Origin: an uncultured Chloroflexia bacterium
GTDB taxonomy: Bacteria > Chloroflexota > Limnocylindria > Limnocylindrales > CSP1-4
Assembly: GCA_963768655.1 (NCBI GenBank)
Contig: CAVYIM010000007.1
Coordinates: 1-64,000 of the forward strand
Direction: 5' to 3'
DNA length: 64,000 nucleotides
Shown: piece by piece, positions 39,213-57,897 of the stretch
Position numbering within the stretch: the first letter of the stretch is position 1
Layout: each line of letters begins with the position of its first letter
The notes under the pieces: generated by a model
Seen by the model: only the letters and a program-made list of their open reading frames with translations
Database searches by the model: none
What the model was told of the DNA's origin: nothing
Translations under genes and position numbers: made by a program

Positions 39213-40148
39213 TCAGACACCGATCGCATCGGCCACCTCGCGCCAGGCTCGGTCCTGCTGGCCCTCGAGTCGCCTCAGGTAGACGCTCGTGACCGCCAGG
39301 CTCGAGTGGTCCAAGAACTGGCTCACCGACTCGATCGACTCGCCAGCGTCACGGCGCAATTTCGCAGCCGTGTGCCGCAAGATATGTACCCCGGTCGGCG
39401 CCATGCCGGCGAGCCGCAGGTAACGGCGGAAGCGGGCATAGAACGTCCCGCTCGTGACTCCCTGCGGCCGCGCAGCGGCCTGCCAGAGCGACTCGTCTGG
39501 CGCCATCGTCGCGAGCTCCTTGCCCGCGTCAGCCAGGGTTGCGCAGATGGCCTCGTAGGCGGGCCGGGGGAGTTCCCGTCGACCGCGCTTGCCGCCTTTG
39601 CCCCGGTAGGAGTAGAAGACGGTCTCACCCTCGAGGCTGAGGTCTCCTGCCCGGAGGCCGATCACCTCCGCTCGCCGGCGGCCGGTCAGGACCAGGGTCA
39701 GCAGGATCGCCCGGTCTCGTCGTCCCGCAACGGTATCGGGCACTACCGCGAGGAGCCGCCGCACCTCGTCCGCTCCGCATCCACGGGCCACCGACTGGAC
39801 GGCTCTCGGTCGTTCGATCGCATCGGTCGGGTTGGAGAGGACCAGACCCATCCGGATCAGGAAGCGGTAGAAGGAGGACAGGCAGGCGATCCGGGCTCCG
39901 ACCGTCGTAGCCGACGGTGTCCGCCCGGACTTGCCGATGCCGTGGACGAAGGCGAGGACGTCGGCTGGCTTGACCCGATCCGGCGTCTTGCCCAGATCCG
40001 CGAAGAACGGCCACAGCATCCGGCTGTAGGACTCGACCGTTCGTCGGGAGCCTGAGCGGTTGCCTTTCTCGACCAGGAAGCCATAGAGCGCCTGGTCCCA
40101 GGCGGAGGGGTCTCCGCTGGCCAGGGCGGGGAGTGGTTGAGCGGTCAT
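39213..40148 (-). CDS. tyrosine recombinase (XerC/D-like)
   Basis: SAM-like N-domain; TGRRRAE, GKGGK, HILRH, LDHSS...TSVY. Confidence 0.92.
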   Translation of the reverse strand: MTAQPLPALASGDPSAWDQALYGFLVEKGNRSGSRRTVESYSRMLWPFFADLGKTPDRVKPADVLAFVHGIGKSGRTPSATTVGARIACLSSFYRFLIRMGLVLSNPTDAIERPRAVQSVARGCGADEVRRLLAVVPDTVAGRRDRAILLTLVLTGRRRAEVIGLRAGDLSLEGETVFYSYRGKGGKRGRRELPRPAYEAICATLADAGKELATMAPDESLWQAAARPQGVTSGTFYARFRRYLRLAGMAPTGVHILRHTAAKLRRDAGESIESVSQFLDHSSLAVTSVYLRRLEGQQDRAWREVADAIGV

Positions 40149-40258
40149 GGTGGGCGTCCTCGGGTACGGGCTGGACGCCCACATCAGTTACTCAGCCGGC
40201 CCCAGATAGCAACACCATGGCCAAATGGTGCCCATGGACGCCGGACCGAGTCGGGGCG

Positions 40259-45584: not shown

Positions 45585-47390
45585 TTAGGAGACCCAGTCG
45601 GGCGCTTCGCTCGCCGCCTTCCTCCATAGGGCGTAATTCGTCTCGCGAGTGGGCGCGTCCATCCTGGGCTTCCACTCGCGATCCTTCTGCCAGTTGGCCC
45701 GAAGGTCCTCGACGGTCTTCCAGAAGCCGACCGCCAGACCGGCTGCGTAGGCGGCGCCGAGGGCGGTCGTCTCGGCGACTTTGGGCCGGATGACCGGCAT
45801 GCCCAGGACGTCGGCCTGGAACTGCATCAGGGTCTCGTTGAACACCATGCCGCCGTCAACCTTGAGGGCCTTGAGCGGAACGCCGGAGTCGGCGTTCATC
45901 GCGTCGAGAACCTCGCGGGTCTGCCAGGCCGTCGCCTCGAGAACCGCCCGGGCGATGTGGCCCTTGTTCACGTAGCGGGTGAGGCCGGCGAAGACGCCGC
46001 GGGCATCGCCCTTCCAGTGGGGCGCGACCAGGCCGGAAAAGGCCGGCACGAAGTACACGCCGCCGTTGTCATCGACGGTCTTGGCCAGATCCTCGACCTC
46101 GGCGGTGATCCTGATCACTCCCAGGTTGTCGCGCAGCCACTGGACGAGGGCGCCGGTGATCGCGATCGAGCCCTCGAGGGCGTAGACCGCGGGCTGGTCG
46201 CCGATCTTGTAGCCGAGCGTCGTCAGCAGACCGCTCTTGGACGGCACCGCCTTCGTGCCCGTGTTGAGGAGCATGAAGCAGCCGGTGCCGTAGGTGTTCT
46301 TCGCCTCGCCGGGCGAGAAGCATGTCTGGCCGAAGAGGGCGGCCTGCTGGTCGCCTAGGTCACCGGCAACGGGCACGCCAGCGAGATCGCCAACGGCCTT
46401 GCCATAGACGGCGCTCGACGGCTTGACCGCCGGCAGCATGGAGCGCGGGATGGTCATGAGCTTTAGGATCTCGGGATCCCAGTCGAGGGTCGCAAGATTC
46501 ATGAGCATCGTCCGGCTGGCGTTACTCACGTCGGTGACGTGAACGCCGCCGTTGACGCCGCCGGTGAGATTCCAGATGCACCACGTGTCGATGTTCCCGA
46601 ACAGCAGGTCGCCTGCCTCTGCCTTGGCGCGGGCGCCGGCGACATTGTCGAGAATCCACTTGACCTTCGGACCGGAGAAGTAAGTTGCGAGCGGCAGGCC
46701 GACCTTGGCCCGCAGGCGGTCCTGGCCGCCCTGCTTGGCAAACTCATTGATGATCACGTCCGTCCGGGTGTCCTGCCAGACGATCGCGTTGTAGACCGGC
46801 TTGCCGGTCTTGCGATCCCAGACGACCGTCGTCTCGCGCTGGTTGGTGACTCCCACCGCAGCGAGGTCCGAGGCGGCGATGCCCGCCTTCTTGAGCGCGC
46901 CACGGATGACCTCGCCGCAGCGGGTCCAGATCTCCATCGCGTCGTGCTCGACCCAGCCCGGCTTGGGGTAGATCTGTTCGTGCTCTTTCTGATCGATCCC
47001 GACCACGCCACCGCTGTGGTCGAAGATCATGAAACGTGTGCTTGTGGTGCCCTGGTCCAGGGCGCCGACATATTGAGCGGAGGAAACCGCACCTAGTAGT
47101 CGCTGGAGCTGTTCGATCGCGGGTCGGGGGAGGTCGCCCACCTCAAGGTAGTGCTTGGCGAGACGACGGGCTTCAGGCTCGTTGCCGCCCTTCCGATAGA
47201 GCGCGACTGCGCTTATTGCCACGACGCCACGCGTGCGTGGGCGGTCAGACGGGACTCTGTCGAACGCAGCGGCTTCCCAGTGGGCCGCCTCAAGGTACGC
47301 CGCCGACGCAGCCTGTTCCTCGCCGCGCGCTAGAAGATCGTTGCCACGAATCATCAGTGCCTCGGCCCGACGGTGAAGATCAAGAGACAC
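45585..47390 (-). CDS. glpK: glycerol kinase with an N-terminal ~100-aa helical (TPR-like) domain
   Basis: [50 protein letters not shown] all intact. Confidence 0.9.
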
Positions 47391-47396
47391 TGCGAT

Positions 47397-47969
47397 CTAG
47401 GCCTCCTTCAGCCAGATGCGGCCGTTGAGGAAGCCAACGACCCCGGCCATAGCCGGTTTCGACCAACCTTGGGCGCGAACCTGTTCGATCTTCTCGCGCA
47501 GTCGCCGAGTCATCTTGGCTTCGTCGTCGAGGTCTATGCCCGACACCTCGAACAGCACGACGTCATCTCTGTCGAGGTTCAGGTCTGGATCGTCCGTCGC
47601 CTCCGCACCTGCCGGGACCAAGTAGTAATCCCCTCCTGATTCGGCCAAGGCCTGGCCGATCGTCACTAGCCCCACGCGGAGTTCTGCCGCACCCAAAGCG
47701 AGCGCGCAAGCACCATTCTCGGTCGCCTGTACCGCATTTCTGTAAGCCCGGACCAGCCTCGTGTCAGGCTCGGTCCAACGCAGTTCAACCTCGACGGACG
47801 CTCCAGGTTGCACGCAAACGCTCGCTGTTGCGGGCGGACGATGATGCCGACAAAGGCACACCCGAGCGGCGTCAGTAAGGAACGCCGCCACCGAGGCCGG
47901 CACGCCTGGATGCGTTCGGTGTAGGAAGTCCTGGTCGAGATCGAAGCCAGGTTTGGGGCTCAGTATCAT
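47397..47969 (-). CDS. putative PD-(D/E)XK-like protein
   Basis: TENGA...GGDYYL...FEVSG...K.EQ pattern; its 3' end carries the RBS of the next gene. Confidence 0.55.
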   Translation of the reverse strand: MILSPKPGFDLDQDFLHRTHPGVPASVAAFLTDAARVCLCRHHRPPATASVCVQPGASVEVELRWTEPDTRLVRAYRNAVQATENGACALALGAAELRVGLVTIGQALAESGGDYYLVPAGAEATDDPDLNLDRDDVVLFEVSGIDLDDEAKMTRRLREKIEQVRAQGWSKPAMAGVVGFLNGRIWLKEA

Positions 47970-50037: not shown

Positions 50038-53000
50038 GTGCGTACGTCAGGTTCGGCATTGATGAATCGAACGATGCGGCACGGCAGGCTCGCTGCTGTA
50101 GTCACCGTCGCAATCCTGGTCGCAGGTCTGTCGCCCGTGTTGCCGGTCATAGCTGCCACAAGGCCCGGACCTCTCCCGCCCGTCCTGACGCCTAGGATCG
50201 ATCCTTCGGCCGCGCAGAGCCTGGCCCGCTCGACCGCTCCCACGGCCGAGACGTCGAGGCCGACGGCCGGCGCACCTGATGCCGCCGGTTCCGGCATGGC
50301 CCCGACCGAAGTCCCGTCTCTGCGCACGGCGTATAGCGACACCTACGACAACCACGACGGCACGTTCACTGTCCACGTGAGCCCCGATCCTATCAACTAC
50401 CAACCGACGGCTGGCGCGGCCTGGACGCCCATCGATCTGTCCTTCGCGCCGATCTCGGGCGGCAGCGGCCGAGTCAGAGCCGGGATGACGCCGGTCCCGG
50501 TCGAGGTCGGGGCGCCCGGCGACGCGGCTGGCTTTGTGAGTGTCGACACCGGCGAGGGCGTGATCAGCCTCCGGCTCGTTTCTGGGGCCAAGCAGGGCAG
50601 CTCGGCATCGGAGCCTGTGGCCGCAGCGGGCGGCGCCAAGGTTGCTGGCCTGCTCCCAGGCGTTGATCTACAGGTCAGCGCCAATCCCTCTGGCTTCAAC
50701 ACGTTCCTCGCTTTCGCCTCTAGACCCGCTTCCCCCTCGTTCACCTTTGAGCTGGACTCACCCGGGCTGACCCCTGCTCTGCAACCCGACGGCTCAATCA
50801 GTTTCCTAGACAAGAGCGGCATGACGGTTGCCACGATGCCCCATCCCTATGCCGAGGATTCGACGCCCGACGATCAGCGCGGCAGCGGGCAGATGACGGT
50901 CGACGTCGTCTATTCGCTCGCTACCCAGGGCGCCACCACCCTGCTCACGGTGAGCGTCGATCCGACCTGGCTCGCGAGCGCGGTCTATCCGGTCTATGTC
51001 GACCCGTCGGTCAATGTGAGTACCACCGCCAACATGAAGGACACCTTCGTCGACGCGATGTACCCGACAGAGAACTGGGAAGGCTTCAAACGCTCGGACT
51101 CCCCCTACTACTACGAGATGCTTCTCGGAGAAGACCCCGACAACTCGACGCAAGTCTGTAAGGACCTGCTCAGCTTTACGATGCCGGCCGCGGTTGCAAG
51201 CTCGACAATCGACTCGGCCACGCTCCAGATCTTCCCCTACTGGCAGTACGAGCACTACAGCGCGGTCACGACTTGGGTCGACCAGGTGACATCGAGCTGG
51301 AGCGCGGGGAGCGTAGATTGGAACAACCAGCCGAGCATCACCACGACCGGCGCCGTGACGGCGACGACAGTCCAGGGCACGACCGGATCATTCGACATCA
51401 CGAGTTTCGTGCAGGGCTGGGTCGACACCCCTTCGACTAACTACGGCATCCAGCTGAACGAGAACGGCAACGGCGGCACCTATTGGAAGCGCGTGATCTC
51501 GTCTGAGCAGACCGGCGCCAACATACCCACGCTAGCGATCACCTACAGCAAGCCTACGGCGACCGTGTCCGCACCGACCGGTAACGTGTGGACCAACAGC
51601 CGCACCCTGACCTGGGCCTACACCTCGACCGACGGCCCGGCCCAAGCCGCCTACGACGTCCAGGTTGCGACCGACTCTGGCTTTACCAACCTCGTCGTCA
51701 ACACGGGCAGCCAATCGGGCGCTGCCTCCAGCTACGCGATCCCATCGGGCACCACCCTGACCAACGGCACGACCTACTACTGGCGAGTCGAGGTTTCCGA
51801 TGGCCATATCTGGTCGGCCTGGACCGCCGCGGCTCAGTTCCGCTGGGACGCCACGGCGCCAGCCTGGAAGGGTTTCACCGCGCCCGCTGCGCAGGTCGAC
51901 CAGTCGGCGGCCTCCTACACTTTCGCCTGGAATGCTGCGACCGATTCCCCCGGGTCCGGGGTCGCTGGCTATAGCCTGCAGGTCCAAACGGCTGCGATCT
52001 CGTCTACAGCCAACGTGTGCTCCACGACATGGTCGAATTCTCGGTACGGTCCAGCCCCTAACCACCACCAGCTACGCGGTTTCCTCCATGACTGGCGCCA
52101 CGTGCTATCGAGTCGGCGTATTCGCCACGGACGCAGTCGGCAACCCAAGTAGTACGTACAGCTCCAGCCCGGTCCTGGTCGACACGACCTCGGCCAACGC
52201 CCCGACGGTCACCGACAACTGCACTTCGCTCGGCTCCTGCTATCGGGTCGGCAACACGATCTACTTCCGGCCTGCAGCAGCCGGCACGCTCAGCCTGACC
52301 TCGACCGGCACGGACAACGAGTCTGGCATCGCCTCCTCGACCTTCGGCGCGCTCTCGGCTCCGACCGGCTGGACCTATACCTCGGGCACGGTCACGGGCA
52401 ACCCGGCCTCTAAGAGCGTCACCTGGTCGAGCACGGCCGGCAGCACGACGCTCCAGATAACCACCACCAACAATGCCGGACTCGTTTCGCCCGCCACGAC
52501 CATCACCTTCACACCGGACTCAACGATCACAGGTTCCTTCACCACGCCCGGCAGCAGCCTCGTCGTTCAATCGGGCACGAGCTACTCGGTCGCCTGGACT
52601 GAGACAGAGACTGGATCTGGCGTCGCGAGCCGCTCGCTGCAGCGTCAGAAGGGGACCGTCGCCACGGCCGGCACCTGTACCGGAGTCACCTTCGCCAACG
52701 ACGGTAGCCCGTCCACATCTGCCTCACCGGTCAACGCCACCGGTCTGGTCAGCGGCAACTGCTATCGCTGGGCTCTGACCCTCACCGACAACGTCGGCAA
52801 CATTGCGACCCTAACGTCGGGTTCGGTCCTGGTCGACACGACCTCGGCCAACGCCCCGACGGTCACCGACAACTGCACTTCGCTCGGCTCCTGCTATCGG
52901 GTCGGCAACACGATCTACTTCCGGCCTGCAGCAGCCGGCACGCTCAGCCTGACCTCGACCGGCACGGACAACGAGTCTGGCATCGCCTCCTCGACCTTCG

Positions 53001-56000
53001 GCGCGCTCTCGGCTCCGACCGGCTGGACCTATACCTCGGGCACGGTCACGGGCAACCCGGCCTCTAAGAGCGTCACCTGGTCGAGCACGGCCGGCAGCAC
53101 GACGCTCCAGATAACCACCACCAACAATGCCGGACTCGTTTCGCCCGCCACGACCATCACCTTCACACCGGACTCAACGATCACAGGTTCCTTCACCACG
53201 CCCGGCAGCAGCCTCGTCGTTCAATCGGGCACGAGCTACTCGGTCGCCTGGACTGAGACAGAGACTGGATCTGGCGTCGCGAGCCGCTCGCTGCAGCGTC
53301 AGAAGGGACCGTCGCCACGGCCGGCACCTGTACCGGAGTCACCTTCGCCAACGACGGTAGCCCGATCACCAGCGTCTCCCCGGCAACGTTCAGCGCTCCG
53401 GTGGCCGGCTACTGCTACCAATGGGTGCTCACGCTTACGGACACCGTCGGCAACGTCGGAACCAGCACGTCAGGCATGGTCATCCGCGACACCAGCAGCG
53501 CCCTCGGGCAACAGAGCCAGCTGAGCCTTGAATTCCTGGGCTCTGGGATCGGGCGACGGGGCGGACGTCAACGTCGTCACTGGCGACCTGGTTGTGAGCC
53601 ATTCGATCGTGAGCCTGCCCATCCGCGGCAGCTCGGTCTCGCTCGATCTCACCTACAACAGCCAGGATCTCGCGAACGTCGGTCTCGGCACCGGCTGGCG
53701 CGTAAACGTGCAGCGGCGGCTCACGCTCAACCCCGACGGCAGCGTGACCCTCGTCGACTCCGACGGGGCGCGATACCTGTTCACGAACCCCGTCACCAAC
53801 GGCACCGTCACGACCTACGCGCGGCCGGCGGCTCTGTTCGCGACCCTGGTCGAGGACACGAGCCAGCAGAGCCAGTTCACCCTGACCTACAAGGACCTCT
53901 CCCTTGACCGCTTCCTCATCTCCGGGTCCGACGCGCTCCTGGTCCGCCAGCAGGATCGCTTCGGCAATGGCGTGACGATCGCTTACAACAGCGGAACCGA
54001 GGACATCTCGACCGTTACTGACGACACGGCCCGAGTCATCAACTTCACCTGGACCACCACTACCTCGCCCCATCAGCTCGCCTCGATCACCGACTGGGCC
54101 TGGATCAACAGCTCGGGCGTCGTCCAGACGAGCGCCACCGGCTCTCGCCGGACCTATCGCTTCTTCTACGACGGCAGCGGCGCCCTGATCGGCTGGGCCG
54201 ACCCGCTCAACGCGTCAGGCACCTGCCCGACCGGCGGGAGCCATCTGACCTGCCTGACCTACAGCGGCGGCCAGCTGACCGGCATTGCCAAGACGCAGAC
54301 CTACACCACCTTCAACGGCAGCTCGCTGGGCGCTGCCACCCGCGTGGCTTCGACGAGCTTCGCCTACTCTAGCGGCGACGTGGCCGGCGTCACCGACGCC
54401 CTGACCAACCAGACTACCTTCGACCGCTCGACACCGGGCCAGACCACCGTTCATCGGCCGGCCAGCGGCGCGGTCACATATGCCTTCGCGGCAGCCGACC
54501 CGTACGGCCGTGTCACCTCGGTCTCGCGCAGCCTGTCGGGCACGCCGATCGTGCAGACGACGGTCTGGGACGCCGCCTTCCCGACGCTGCCCGACTCGGT
54601 CACCGACAACTCGACCGGAGCTCTGAGCACGCCCTCGCGGACAGTGACGTATACGTACTTCGCAGGTTCGATGGGCAACCTGGCGCGGGAGGTCGAGCCT
54701 CTGACCGCGACGACCGACCGGCGGACCGATTACACGTACAACGCCAACAACGACGTGACCCAAGAGATCGTCAGCCAGGATGGCTCGACGACCCTTCAGA
54801 CCACCACTCGATACTGCTACGACAGCGGCTGCTCGCTCAGCGGCAGCGGCCTGTCGATACTCAGCGAAATCGACGACTACGTCTCGGGTAGCTCTGCCAC
54901 AAACGACACCAACGTCCGGACCGACTACGCCTACGACGCCTACGGGCAGAAGACCCGGACCACGCGCCACAACCGTGATGCAGCAGGTGCTGACCTCGAC
55001 GACCGCATCGACGCGTCGGTCTACAATTCGTATGGCGACGTGACGGCGTCGATCACCAACTATGCCGACGGCCAGGTGACCGGCGGCACCGACGTGACTC
55101 CCGATGCCAGCGGCGCCCGGACAGACCTGACGACCACGTACACCTTCGACACCGCCGGCAACGAGGTCAGCGTTGCCGACCCGCGCCGCGCGATCGAACT
55201 CGCTCTCGGATCTGCGGGTGCCGACGACTATGTCACCCGCTCCACCTTCGATGCCCTCAACGAGAACCTGAGTCAGACCACCCCGACGACTCCCGGGGTC
55301 AGCGGCGTCCCCAGAAGAGCTCGTCGAGCGTCTACGACGAATTCGGCTCGGTCCGAGCTGCAACCGACCTGAACGGTATCGTCACCGGCACAGCCTTCGA
55401 TGCCGGTGGCAACTCGACCGCTACCTATGAGATCGACCCCTCGCCTCTCGGCGCCTCACAGACGTCGTCTTCTACCTATGACGCCGCCGGTCGCCTGGCC
55501 ACCAGCAAGGACGCGCGGCAGGTCGCCAACGGCGCCCTAGGTCACACCGCCTACGGATATGACGATCTCGGGCAGCAAGTCTCCGTCACCGACGCCGCGG
55601 GGTCCAGCCCCGACATCTCAAGCGAGACGACAACCACTTACGATGCCCTCGGGCGCAAGACGGCAGACGACTACTCAGTCGGCGGTACGTCCTATACCTA
55701 CGATTTGGGAGGCCGAGCGCTCACGACCGACGACGGCCTGTCCTGCTCGACGAGCACGTACGACTACCAGGACCGGACCACGACCACTACCAGCGGCCTG
55801 AACACCGGGACCTGCACCGATGGCGGTGACGGCTCCACGACAACCAACACCTACGACGGCCTGGGTCGGCTCACGCTGGCCCAGATCACTGCGGGCGTGA
55901 ACGTCGGAGACAAGACAACCAACGATGTCTACGACTCCGCGGGCGACAAGCTCTCCGACTCGACCACCAAGTCCGGTGTGGTGGCGACCGCCACCACGCA

Positions 56001-57897
56001 GTTCAACCTGCTCGGCCAGGCTATGAGCGTTCTGGCTATCGATGGCTCCACTACGAAGTCCGACTATGATCCAGCCGGCAACGTGTCCGACAGCTGTCTG
56101 TGGGCCTCGGGCTCCACGGTTGGCTCGTGCTACCCGGTGGGCACGACTCCATGGACCAACCCGCCGACCAAGGCGACGAGTTCGGTCTACGACGCTGGTA
56201 ATCACACCATCGCCTCGACCGACGCCGCCACCGCGATGACCACGACCTACGACCCGACTCACGACTACGCGGTCGCCGCCACATACCTGCCGACAGGCTC
56301 GGGCCACGAGTATCAGACCTACTACACGTACGACTCCAAGCAACGCGTGACGGCGCTGACCCACCAGGACTGCACCCTCTCGACTGGCCACTCCTGCACC
56401 AGTGCGAACGTCGTTGGCTCCGACGCCTACACGTACGATGCCAACGACAACCGGACGCAGGTCACCGAGTACAACGGCGCTACCACGACCAACGACTACT
56501 ACTGCTACGACGCGAACAACCGGCTCGTCGCCGAGAAGTCGGGCAGCTCGTGCGCGACCAATCCCGACGAGACGTACACGTACGACGACTCCGGCAACCG
56601 CCTGACTGCGACCGTCGGTGGCGTAACTACGAACTTCGCCTACGACAGCGACGGCCGCCTGTGCGCCGTTGGGGCGACCTCCTGCAGCTCACCCAACGTC
56701 ACCTACGACGATGCCGGCCGAACAGCGACCTACAACGGCTGGTCTTACCTCTACGACTCGGCGGGCCGTCTGGTTTCGGCTTGCCAGAGCACGAGTTGCA
56801 CTGGCTCGGGCTTCAACCGAGTCGACTACACGTACGATGGCGACGGCAACCGTACCCAGATCGTTGACACGACTGCAGGAGGCGTCGCTACCACCACGAC
56901 CTTCACCTACCAGGGCGGCATCATGGTCGGCGAGTCGGTCAACGGCACGCCGTCGCGCGGCTACCTAGCAGCCGGCGGCTCGATGGCCGAGATGACCATT
57001 CCGAGCGGTTCGGAAGCCGGGACCTACATCGTGACCTGGAACGGTCACGATGACGCCACGAGCCTTAACTTGATCAACGGCGACGGCTCGCTCACCCCGG
57101 TCAACAGCTACAGCTACTCGACCTGGGGAACGCCAACGACAAGCGTGGCCAGCGGCGCCAGCGACCTGGCCTTCCGCTTCCTCTACATCGGCTCGGGCGA
57201 TGTCCAGTGGGACAATGACTTCAGTATCAGCCTAGAGTACATGCACGCGAGGAGCTACTCGCCTGCGTTGGGGCGGTTCCTGCAGCCTGATCCAAGCGGC
57301 GAGGATCTCGGTTACGCTTACTCGCAGAATGATCCCGTTGGGCACGCAGATCCCACGGGCACGTTTGCCATCCCGCGACTCATATGGGGGGTTGAGTGGG
57401 GCTACGAAGGGCAAGACTACGGCCTCGCCAATCTAGCCGTAGGCCTTGTCTGCGGACTCACGAGCTTCAGCGGCTTCTTCACCAGCTGGATTGGCTATTC
57501 GGTCGGTGCTGGCTGCACGATCGGCGGATACATCCTGGGGAGCACGCCAATTGGCGGGTTCCTAGAGTCGCTGGCAGGAAAGAAGGCAAAGGGCTCCACT
57601 GGATGGGACGTTATGGTTGAGACTCCGCACGTGTTCCTGCGCGTACTGTCCTATTGCCCGCCGGGCAGCCGCATTTGCTCAATCAGTCAGGTGCGCATAT
57701 GGATCAAGATGAGGCAATCCTATCGTGATTGGTGGTGCCGCTACTACTTCACGTATTCAACCTGGCAGCTCAACAACCCGGACTGGTTCAGTGGCTACAA
57801 TGGCGCCACTCCCATGTGCCCCAAAATGAACAACAACCAGGCCTCCATCCTCGTCTCGGCCGTGGGCCTCATCCCAATCCTTTTCGACATGCTATAG
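50038..57897 (+). CDS. giant secreted RHS/YD-repeat protein (~2600 aa) with DNRLRE-like and Ig/FnIII-like domains, four frameshifts
   Basis: Signal peptide, DNRLRE-like module, YD repeats, core ARSYSPALGRFLQPDP...YSQNDP...DPTG; frames join at about 52037, 53305, 53533, 55310. Confidence 0.88.
52170..53364 (+). repeat. near-identical tandem duplication, period 654 bp
   Basis: 52170-52711 matches 52824-53364; the one difference seen is a missing G (agaagggg vs agaaggg). Confidence 0.92.

Follow-up and report, generated by a model that had tools for sequence, protein, structure and literature searches.

Two kinds of described system are among those closest to the locus considered here. In Hachiman, an effector with a restriction-endonuclease fold, HamA, is paired with a larger helicase, HamB. 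Type II toxin–antitoxin and nuclease–immunity pairs are small, co-directional, coupled, patchily distributed, and solitary among ordinary-looking chromosomal genes. The present locus lies at positions 45585–47969, on the minus strand, of a 64,000-nucleotide stretch of an uncultured Chloroflexia genome (assembly GCA_963768655.1, contig CAVYIM010000007.1, positions 1–64,000), and this whole stretch is referred to below as the window. The locus consists of gene A, which encodes a putative nuclease of 190 residues, and of a second gene, in which a helical domain of about 100 residues, named B-N, is joined in frame to a complete glycerol kinase, GlpK. The explanation favoured here, to which a probability of about 0.5 is given, is that A and B form a toxin–antitoxin-like or defence-like nuclease module in which a replacement of the C-terminal part of B has been tolerated.

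The pair A/B shares with toxin–antitoxin and nuclease–immunity pairs all of the features named above, and the predicted binding site of the partner is the conserved face of the putative nuclease. It differs from these pairs in that the usual B protein is large (~370 residues) and has more domains, and no DNA-binding antitoxin domain was recognised. The resemblance to Hachiman is a loose one, consisting of a restriction-fold protein beside the helical N-terminus of a larger partner. The helical N-terminal region of HamB is one of the structural neighbours of B-N (8vx9_B, Z 9.7), and in one variant locus, L039, a helicase follows B-N. However, neither A, B-N nor canonical B has a PADLOC match to HamA or HamB, A has no Pfam (DUF1837) match, the L039 helicase is of the Helicase_II/MzaC/Z1 kind and not HamB, the Z values are within the chance range for helical repeats, and the partner in the window is a kinase. 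On sequence comparison, the pair would thus fall outside Hachiman.

Gene A and B-N as a Conserved Pair

Gene A occupies positions 47397–47969 of the minus strand and ends with a TAG stop codon at 47399–47397, which is followed by six bases and then, at 47390, by the GTG start of an open reading frame (ORF) of 601 residues (45585–47390, minus strand). Inside the end of gene A, an AAGGAGG motif resembling a ribosome-binding site (47402–47408, minus strand) is located 11 bases before this GTG. The A protein carries the motif E84…D114…E141-V-S-G, and B-N opens the 601-residue ORF (47091–47390, minus strand). An earlier description of the locus made from the DNA letters alone, here called the sequence-only reading, had noted a 190-residue E…D…EVSG protein and an AAGGAGG ahead of the GTG, and both coordinates and translation agree with it. 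Gene A has no Pfam, NCBIfam, PADLOC or significant PHROG match, B-N (the first ~100 residues of the ORF) has no family match in Pfam, NCBIfam or PADLOC, and profile searches with A and B returned no meaningful sequence match in the Protein Data Bank (PDB).

The pairing of A with B-N recurs outside the window. Gene A was collected in 24 loci, of which 13 are metagenomic and 11 belong to species genomes spread over several phyla; those on genome contigs were retrieved with query P0021, whereas query P0002 gave none. Three loci end inside A; of the 21 informative ones, 18 carry B-N immediately after A and in the same orientation. The stop codon of A and the start codon of B overlap as ATGA or GTGA in five of ten loci, and the gap in the window is six bases. 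The A family comprises 27 proteins in a large protein collection, all of them unnamed and without Pfam domains, and with the B profile 2382 representative clusters are matched at E ≤ 1e-3, of which 409 remain at E ≤ 1e-30. Judging by this recurrence and coupling, A and B-N are the two conserved halves of a two-gene module that is widespread and unannotated, much as the sequence-only reading had proposed for its nuclease-like and helical proteins.

Modelling of the complex, which had been suggested together with that reading, predicts that A and B-N bind each other. For A with the B-N of the window, the interface score ipSAE was 0.87 (0.88, 0.84 and 0.87 in the individual runs), and the best of three controls reached 0.00. 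Across the runs, the predicted local distance difference test score (pLDDT) of the partners was at least 89 and the contacts agreed to at least 95%. Among reference cases, 58 of 80 solved complexes and 2 of 110 mismatched pairs attained this mark, counts that apply only roughly here, since own alignments were used for the prediction. Because neither A nor B has a sequence relative in the PDB, the score does not reflect recall of a solved complex. The predicted interface involves N78, T83, E84, G112, D114 and Y116 of A and H6, E39, R52, T53 and S60 of B, all of which are conserved columns. Since E84, G112, D114 and Y116 are among them, B-N would sit against the putative catalytic face of A.

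Fusion of B-N to a Complete Glycerol Kinase

Downstream of B-N, the 601-residue ORF continues through a linker of six residues (47073–47090, minus strand), which has equal length but another sequence in a second species, into a complete GlpK that extends from the canonical Tyr4 to the stop codon (45585–47072, minus strand) and was delimited by Pfam, NCBIfam and DNA comparison. The GlpK match covers residues 104–600, with 759 bits for NF000756 (cut-off 498) and 722.6 bits for TIGR01311 (cut-off 590.35), so that the fused kinase corresponds to this FGGY enzyme from end to end above both curated cut-offs; the Pfam domains FGGY_N and FGGY_C span residues 107–354 and 364–553, and the DQGTTS and GDQQAA motifs are present. 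In-frame ATG, GTG or TTG codons ahead of DQGTTS occur only at residues 1, 13, 57 and 84, and the next one, Met121, lies past the motif. As there is no usable start between residue 84 and DQGTTS, the whole kinase can be made only as a fusion. Family scores and start-codon scan therefore uphold the earlier description of a ~100-residue helical domain in frame with a complete GlpK that lacks a start of its own.

The source genome (nine contigs, 3.37 Mb, 88.6% complete) holds a canonical glpF-glpK-glpD operon on another contig, C5, and for this reason the fused glpK is an extra copy. The canonical GlpK has 498 residues and is 93% identical to the fused one, and the DNA similarity of the two genes starts exactly at 47072, the codon of canonical Tyr4. 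Neither glpF nor glpD is present in the 64-kb window, in agreement with the sequence-only reading, to which the operon on C5 was not visible. Compared with an ordinary GlpK, the fused copy lacks its own start, carries 106 additional N-terminal residues, does not stand beside glpF or glpD, and diverges faster in its 3' third.

Recurrence and Age of the Junction

Convincing matches to both A and B-N were found in 2 of 51 genomes of the genus, namely the source genome and G019, a metagenome-assembled genome (MAG) of a second species. In G019, A is 68% identical to that of the window and is followed by the same stop codon, six-base spacing and GTG, by B-N, and by a startless glpK. The G019 locus is also represented on a metagenome contig independent of this MAG (L037, 4322 nucleotides), which equals it across 2482 aligned bases save for 20 extra bases at the junction, and these bases put B-N in frame with GlpK. 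In both the window and L037, 106 residues precede GlpK, the kinase begins at Tyr4, and Met121 bears the same number; the linker has diverged. The fusion is thus not peculiar to a single assembly. Because junction and length are common to the window and L037, it would have arisen once and would since have been inherited or transferred. With B-N found after A in 18 of 21 informative loci and the junction found again in a second species, the find is more than a chance observation. Weaker matches in other genomes of the genus were treated as noise; they comprise matches to A at E 0.004–0.009 and partial matches to B-N at E 6.5e-4 to 8.6e-3, the latter at G015:C6:14157-14327, G023:C76:14362-14616 and G051:C2:14146-14307 in frames of 271–337 residues.

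Between the two carriers, the synonymous divergence (dS) is ~0.86 for A, with a nonsynonymous-to-synonymous ratio (dN/dS, omega) of 0.23, and ~1.17 for B-N plus linker, with an omega of 0.32, values that indicate purifying selection. Because the synonymous divergence of A and B-N amounts to 0.86–1.17, the fusion is not recent. Of the earlier notion of a recent chance fusion, only the second part is retained, as a chance origin by deletion is fully plausible. It was also considered that the in-frame join might be a one-base error, the canonical copy having one extra base before a shared TATGTC, and this idea was dropped in view of the same in-frame junction and length in the second species.

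The genome of the second species bears on another explanation, in which an A-B island sits upstream of glpK in a glp operon, a working kinase owes its start codon and N-terminal extension to B-N, and the extra copy in the window was moved on the island. G019 has one match of glpK grade, the one after A-B, its other match being a 37% paralogue. The 3' end of this glpK overlaps a glpD contig by ~122 nucleotides, and the glpF contig ends 72 nucleotides past glpF. In G019, the fused gene may accordingly be the glpK of the operon itself, unless a second copy has escaped assembly: no further G019 contig overlaps the end of the glpF contig, so that the contigs are not joinable on the glpF side, and short contigs may hide a second copy. 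In the window, an ORF for a tyrosine recombinase of the phage-integrase family (39213–40184, minus strand) lies 5 kb from A-B and would suit a mobile island, but it belongs to a separate, multi-copy element. Moreover, there are no att-like repeats between 37.5–41.5 kb and 44.5–50.5 kb, no remnant of glpF or of the glpK 5' and upstream region was found elsewhere in the source genome, and the canonical operon of that genome is intact. A donor role of this kind for B-N is rather unlikely.

Predicted Fold and Putative Active Site of A

PD-(D/E)xK nucleases, such as lambda exonuclease and alkaline exonuclease, Hjc, I-Ssp6803I and tRNA splicing endonuclease, are the described proteins that the A model most resembles: it shows the same core order of helices and strands, an acidic residue at a strand start, and E-x-x in the next strand. 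The AlphaFold2 (AF2) model of A has a pLDDT of 94. In a wide structural search, three chains reached Z ≥ 5, and almost all neighbours have a restriction-endonuclease fold. The top match was alkaline exonuclease 3syy (Z 6.0, root-mean-square deviation 2.9, 95 aligned residues), followed by tRNA splicing endonucleases (Z 5.8 and 5.2), I-Ssp6803I (4.7), Hjc (4.6) and lambda exonuclease (4.4), and, lower down, by Cas4, VRR-NUC, CinB, HamA (8vxy_A, Z 3.4) and Card1. The order of elements fits the core, with T83/E84 in a helix, D114 at a strand start, E141-V-S143 in the next strand, and R156, K160 and Q163 in a helix. A therefore models as a distant restriction-endonuclease-like fold, for which the structural scores are weak and the matches consistent.

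The conserved residues of the family are T83/E84, G112, D114, Y116, E141-V-S143-G, R156, K160 and Q163, together with C38, R41, H43 and P46 in the N-terminal part. D114 is nearly invariant; E141, Ser143 at the third motif position, K160 and Q163 are invariant; T83/E84 and R156 are invariant or nearly so. The canonical D…(D/E)-x-K motif is not present, as a serine takes the place of the lysine, and the active site would be a variant one at best. K160 or Q163 on the next helix could stand in for the motif lysine, and such variants are of a known kind. In comparison with PD-(D/E)xK nucleases, A further lacks a sequence-level relationship to them, has Z values that all stay at or below 6.0, and possesses an extra conserved N-terminal part; its membership in any named nuclease family is not demonstrable. 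The nuclease-like character assigned to A by the sequence-only reading is hence favoured by the restriction-endonuclease-like model and its consistent matches, and is weakened by low scores and by the serine.

A search of the Atlas gave only clusters labelled 'hypothetical protein', plus a weak Hjc lead at 0.78. Sub-threshold matches to PorE (E 0.12), PDC-M45A (E 0.02), PDC-M02B (E 0.018) and phrog_22155 (E 0.015) were disregarded. The record of gene A in the large protein collection is 138 residues long, begins at Val53 read as Met, and misses ~50 N-terminal residues, including C38, R41, H43 and P46.

Variable C-Terminal Modules of B

B-N is followed by different modules in different loci. 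In 10 of the 18 B-N loci, ~260 further residues follow, giving a protein of 364–394 residues, and one more locus is cut by a contig end; in 3 of the 18 nothing follows (142–175 residues). The window-like P0031 (123 residues) is another short B-N form. GlpK follows in L037. In L039 (1084–3615), B-N is joined to a ResIII/Z1 helicase in a protein of 843 residues (PADLOC Helicase_II 6.5e-54, MzaC 1.4e-18), which results in a nuclease-plus-helicase pair. In L049 (6531–8462), a low-complexity linker of ~60 residues connects B-N to a radical-SAM/LAM_C (lysine-2,3-aminomutase-like) enzyme in a protein of 643 residues, in which the CxxxCxxC motif is intact. The search for other domains on the helical module, which the sequence-only reading had recommended, thus yielded a region of ~260 residues with an OB-like end, a helicase and a radical-SAM enzyme. 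Among the best 150 of the 2382 B clusters, 123 are 355–400 residues long, and because the long form is the common one among these best 150, the GlpK form can be inferred to be derived.

Some further observations concern the forms of B. L049 has a possible internal start at Met117 with a GAGG motif. A stand-alone B-N of 113 residues occurs in L054 (1501–1842), where no recognisable A was seen directly upstream, and a weak stand-alone match lies in a frame of 119 residues at G457:C1:2409977-2410276. The 601-residue fusion product is apparently without a record in the large protein collection, and a word-based search for other long B-N proteins (330–1052 residues) returned none and also missed the protein of the window itself.

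In the model of canonical B (pLDDT 92.5), residues 1–108 form a TPR-like domain, and the point at which B is cut in the fusion falls at the domain boundary, at about residue 105. Invariant B-N residues in the alignments are H6, A35, A36, E39, T53, G55, S60 and P88. The predicted fold of B-N gives VIA Z values of 10–12 to many TPR proteins and a Foldseek probability of ~1 to the TPR of kinesin light chain, but with E values of ~0.06–0.15, and the Pfam TPR match in the family is sub-threshold and limited to one homologue. The last ~70 residues of canonical B resemble the OB-type barrels of CusF and SilF (Foldseek probability 1.0, target TM 0.63–0.65, E 0.02–0.08), and the middle part (~116–295), viewed only within the whole-B model, has no fold match.

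According to the favoured explanation, A would be a small nuclease-type effector with a variant D…ExS motif, and the five-helix, TPR-like B-N would be its obligatory partner, which holds or regulates A at the conserved face beside the putative active site and may thereby neutralise it. B-N would be the part that always needs to be made, and the rest of B would be exchangeable. A single deletion or rearrangement would have cut off, at the domain boundary, the usual region of ~260 residues with its OB-like end and fused B-N to codon 4 (Tyr4) of a neighbouring glpK. The GlpK form would then persist with B-N still functional and the kinase tail tolerated and harmless. Such a course of events would account for the short B forms, for the odd fusions to intact enzymes of a neighbouring type, and for a relaxed, redundant kinase copy.

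The same set of fusions can be read in functional terms, with GlpK as an input domain whose closure or oligomerisation, driven by a substrate or effector such as glycerol or ATP, would set whether B-N holds or releases nuclease A, giving a toxin or defence system gated by metabolic state. This sensor fusion is possible but unlikely. It would be in keeping with the other C-terminal modules carried by B-N, including the intact radical-SAM/LAM_C enzyme and the helicase, with the cut at the domain boundary, and with a kinase that is kept almost whole from Tyr4, with its motifs intact and without a start of its own. The junction is the same in two species at a dS of ~1, and 11 lineage-specific changes in the 3' third of the kinase, described below, could be adaptive. 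No observation, however, couples the state of the kinase to A; the fusion is carried by only 2 of 51 genus genomes; a variant with a 20-nucleotide deletion exists; the elevated omega of the 3' third fits relaxation equally well; and the 5' 892 nucleotides have been overwritten by the canonical copy, which is unexpected if the fused copy was specialised there. In the open-access literature, supplements aside, no paper was found that ties FGGY kinases to defence or toxin systems.

A broader form of this idea, which is more doubtful still, makes B-N a portable docking domain that tethers the nuclease to interchangeable inputs, namely the OB-containing domain, a helicase, a radical-SAM enzyme or a glycerol kinase. 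Here, glycerol or ATP status, or the effect of a phage on it, would decide the release of the nuclease. If this were true, the locus would represent an undescribed kind of toxin or defence system, one gated by a metabolic enzyme.

Evidence Against a Tolerated Replacement

Several observations weigh against the explanation of A/B as a nuclease module with a tolerated replacement, or reduce what the fusion can say for it. The first concerns the junction itself. Public read evidence consisted of Logan contigs of four runs aligned to the window, and in these four runs no contig bridges the junction and none lies on 47093–47393; the in-frame state in the window is consequently known from the assembly alone. 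Contigs of run X1 cover 46898–47048, 47394–47544 and 47670–47860 without differences to the window, and those of runs X2 and X3 diverge at 47072 into the upstream region of the canonical glpK, so that the Logan contigs neither back nor contradict the junction. The read support that the sequence-only reading had called for was not obtained, as no public read or contig spans the join. An assembly or polishing error at a repeated gene could in principle have produced the in-frame state: glpK is a 1.5-kb repeat in the source genome, the unbridged interval extends over 47072–47393, and the near-perfect 5' identity to the other copy, described below, could stem from polishing. Such an artefact is nonetheless highly improbable, given that an independent metagenome contig of another species, L037, has the same in-frame junction, that the locus lies inside a 301-kb contig, and that homology to the canonical copy begins exactly at the junction seen in that other species.

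A second point is that the reading frame is not kept everywhere. The locus in the G019 MAG (L009, contig C145) has a 20-nucleotide deletion exactly at the junction, which leaves its glpK out of frame with B-N and without a start, with a TGA just ahead of GALDQG, so that a frame-breaking variant of the fusion exists. That the frame has been kept, moreover, argues only weakly for selection, as no more than about six codons, those of the linker, can vary freely.

The kinase part adds a third point. The first 892 nucleotides of the fused glpK (46181–47072, minus strand) differ from the canonical gene on C5 (locus L002, 2091–2982) at two positions, corresponding to 99.8% identity, whereas its identity to the glpK genes of two further species in the genus is no higher than 89.7% and 88.5%. 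This tract points to a recent gene conversion from the canonical copy, for which homogenisation during assembly polishing would be an alternative. The remaining ~600 nucleotides (45585–46180, minus strand) are a mosaic with ~88% identity to the canonical copy and an elevated non-synonymous rate. Omega in this 3' third is 0.33 between the fused and the canonical gene, compared with 0.12 between two canonical copies; dN/dS comparisons involving G019 were left out, its junction deletion having broken the codon register. In the same 3' third, 11 sites without variation among five canonical GlpKs are changed, compared with 0–2 in close canonical ones. The constraint on the fused copy thus appears relaxed or altered with the frame intact, and redundancy of the copy would explain this equally well as a change of role.

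These data bring up the possibility that the fused glpK is a decaying remnant, redundant, unexpressed or non-functional, and refreshed by gene conversion from the canonical copy. The 99.8% identity of the 5' tract, the relaxed 3' third with its changes at otherwise invariant sites, and the frame-breaking deletion in G019 would all be expected of such a remnant. On the other hand, two species show neither a stop codon nor a frameshift over 1.8 kb, omega is at 0.33 still much lower than 1, and ribosomes must at least enter the fused ORF, since the pair depends on translation of B-N. Decay of this sort is improbable.

The last group of contrary points concerns the pair as a nuclease module. No chain in the wide structural search with A reached Z ≥ 8, and Foldseek on the A model returned nothing at E ≤ 0.001, the best match being the tRNA splicing endonuclease 1a79 at 8.5e-3. 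As the canonical lysine of (D/E)xK is an invariant serine, catalysis by A is not assured. Three loci, L044–L046, which are near-identical copies of one element, have A without B-N downstream; these may be orphan A genes, or their partner may have diverged beyond detection. Searches of phage and plasmid collections gave no match to canonical B, and no PADLOC defence family matches A or canonical B.

Distribution and Genomic Surroundings

The module is rare and patchy. It was found in 8 of 401 genomes of the phylum sample to which the window belongs, among them a member of another genus in the family, with a canonical pair, and in the phylum sample of a gammaproteobacterial carrier it was found in 1 of 401, which is the seed itself. 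Its carriers nevertheless span several phyla. In most of the genome loci read, ORFs of housekeeping type stand beside the pair, the neighbours having been judged by eye. In two loci of the same phylum, L051 (2441–3058) and L052 (286–888), an ORF resembling a family-4 uracil-DNA glycosylase, likewise judged by eye, precedes A-B.

In the window, the G+C content at third codon positions (GC3) is 0.64–0.69 for A and B-N, 0.78–0.96 for glpK and ~0.8–0.88 for the flanking genes, and the composition of A and B-N appears foreign by this measure. Five genomes of the genus contain almost nothing that matches the DNA from ~40.3 to 53 kb, with the exception of glpK itself. Upstream of A, the two species have different genes, and conservation is therefore limited to A plus B-GlpK. 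The neighbours include unannotated ORFs, a DUF6572 protein, a GDSL lipase, a CBM96 protein and DUF6531/RHS proteins, and no tRNA is present in the 30–64 kb part of the window. At 50038–57897, a CBM96/Ig-domain protein of 704 residues is followed by DUF6531 and RHS-repeat proteins, an arrangement beside the accessory stretch that looks polymorphic-toxin-type. The segment 38427–40243, around the tyrosine recombinase, matches at least 12 G019 contigs and several places in G006 at 78–84%, which suggests a multi-copy mobile element of the tyrosine-recombinase type.

Significance of the Module

What appears to be new here, in part on the strength of structural models, is an unannotated two-gene family of a putative nuclease and its partner in which a metabolic kinase takes the place of the usual C-terminal module. 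Annotation pipelines would label the 601-residue gene simply as a glycerol kinase with an extended N-terminus, or would truncate it. A and B form a large family without a Pfam, NCBIfam, PADLOC or PDB relative, and this family now gains a first structural reading and a predicted interface. In the GlpK, radical-SAM and helicase variants, the domain predicted to bind A has been kept and the rest of B has been swapped, and such variants can show which half of B is indispensable and what the stimulus of the module may be.

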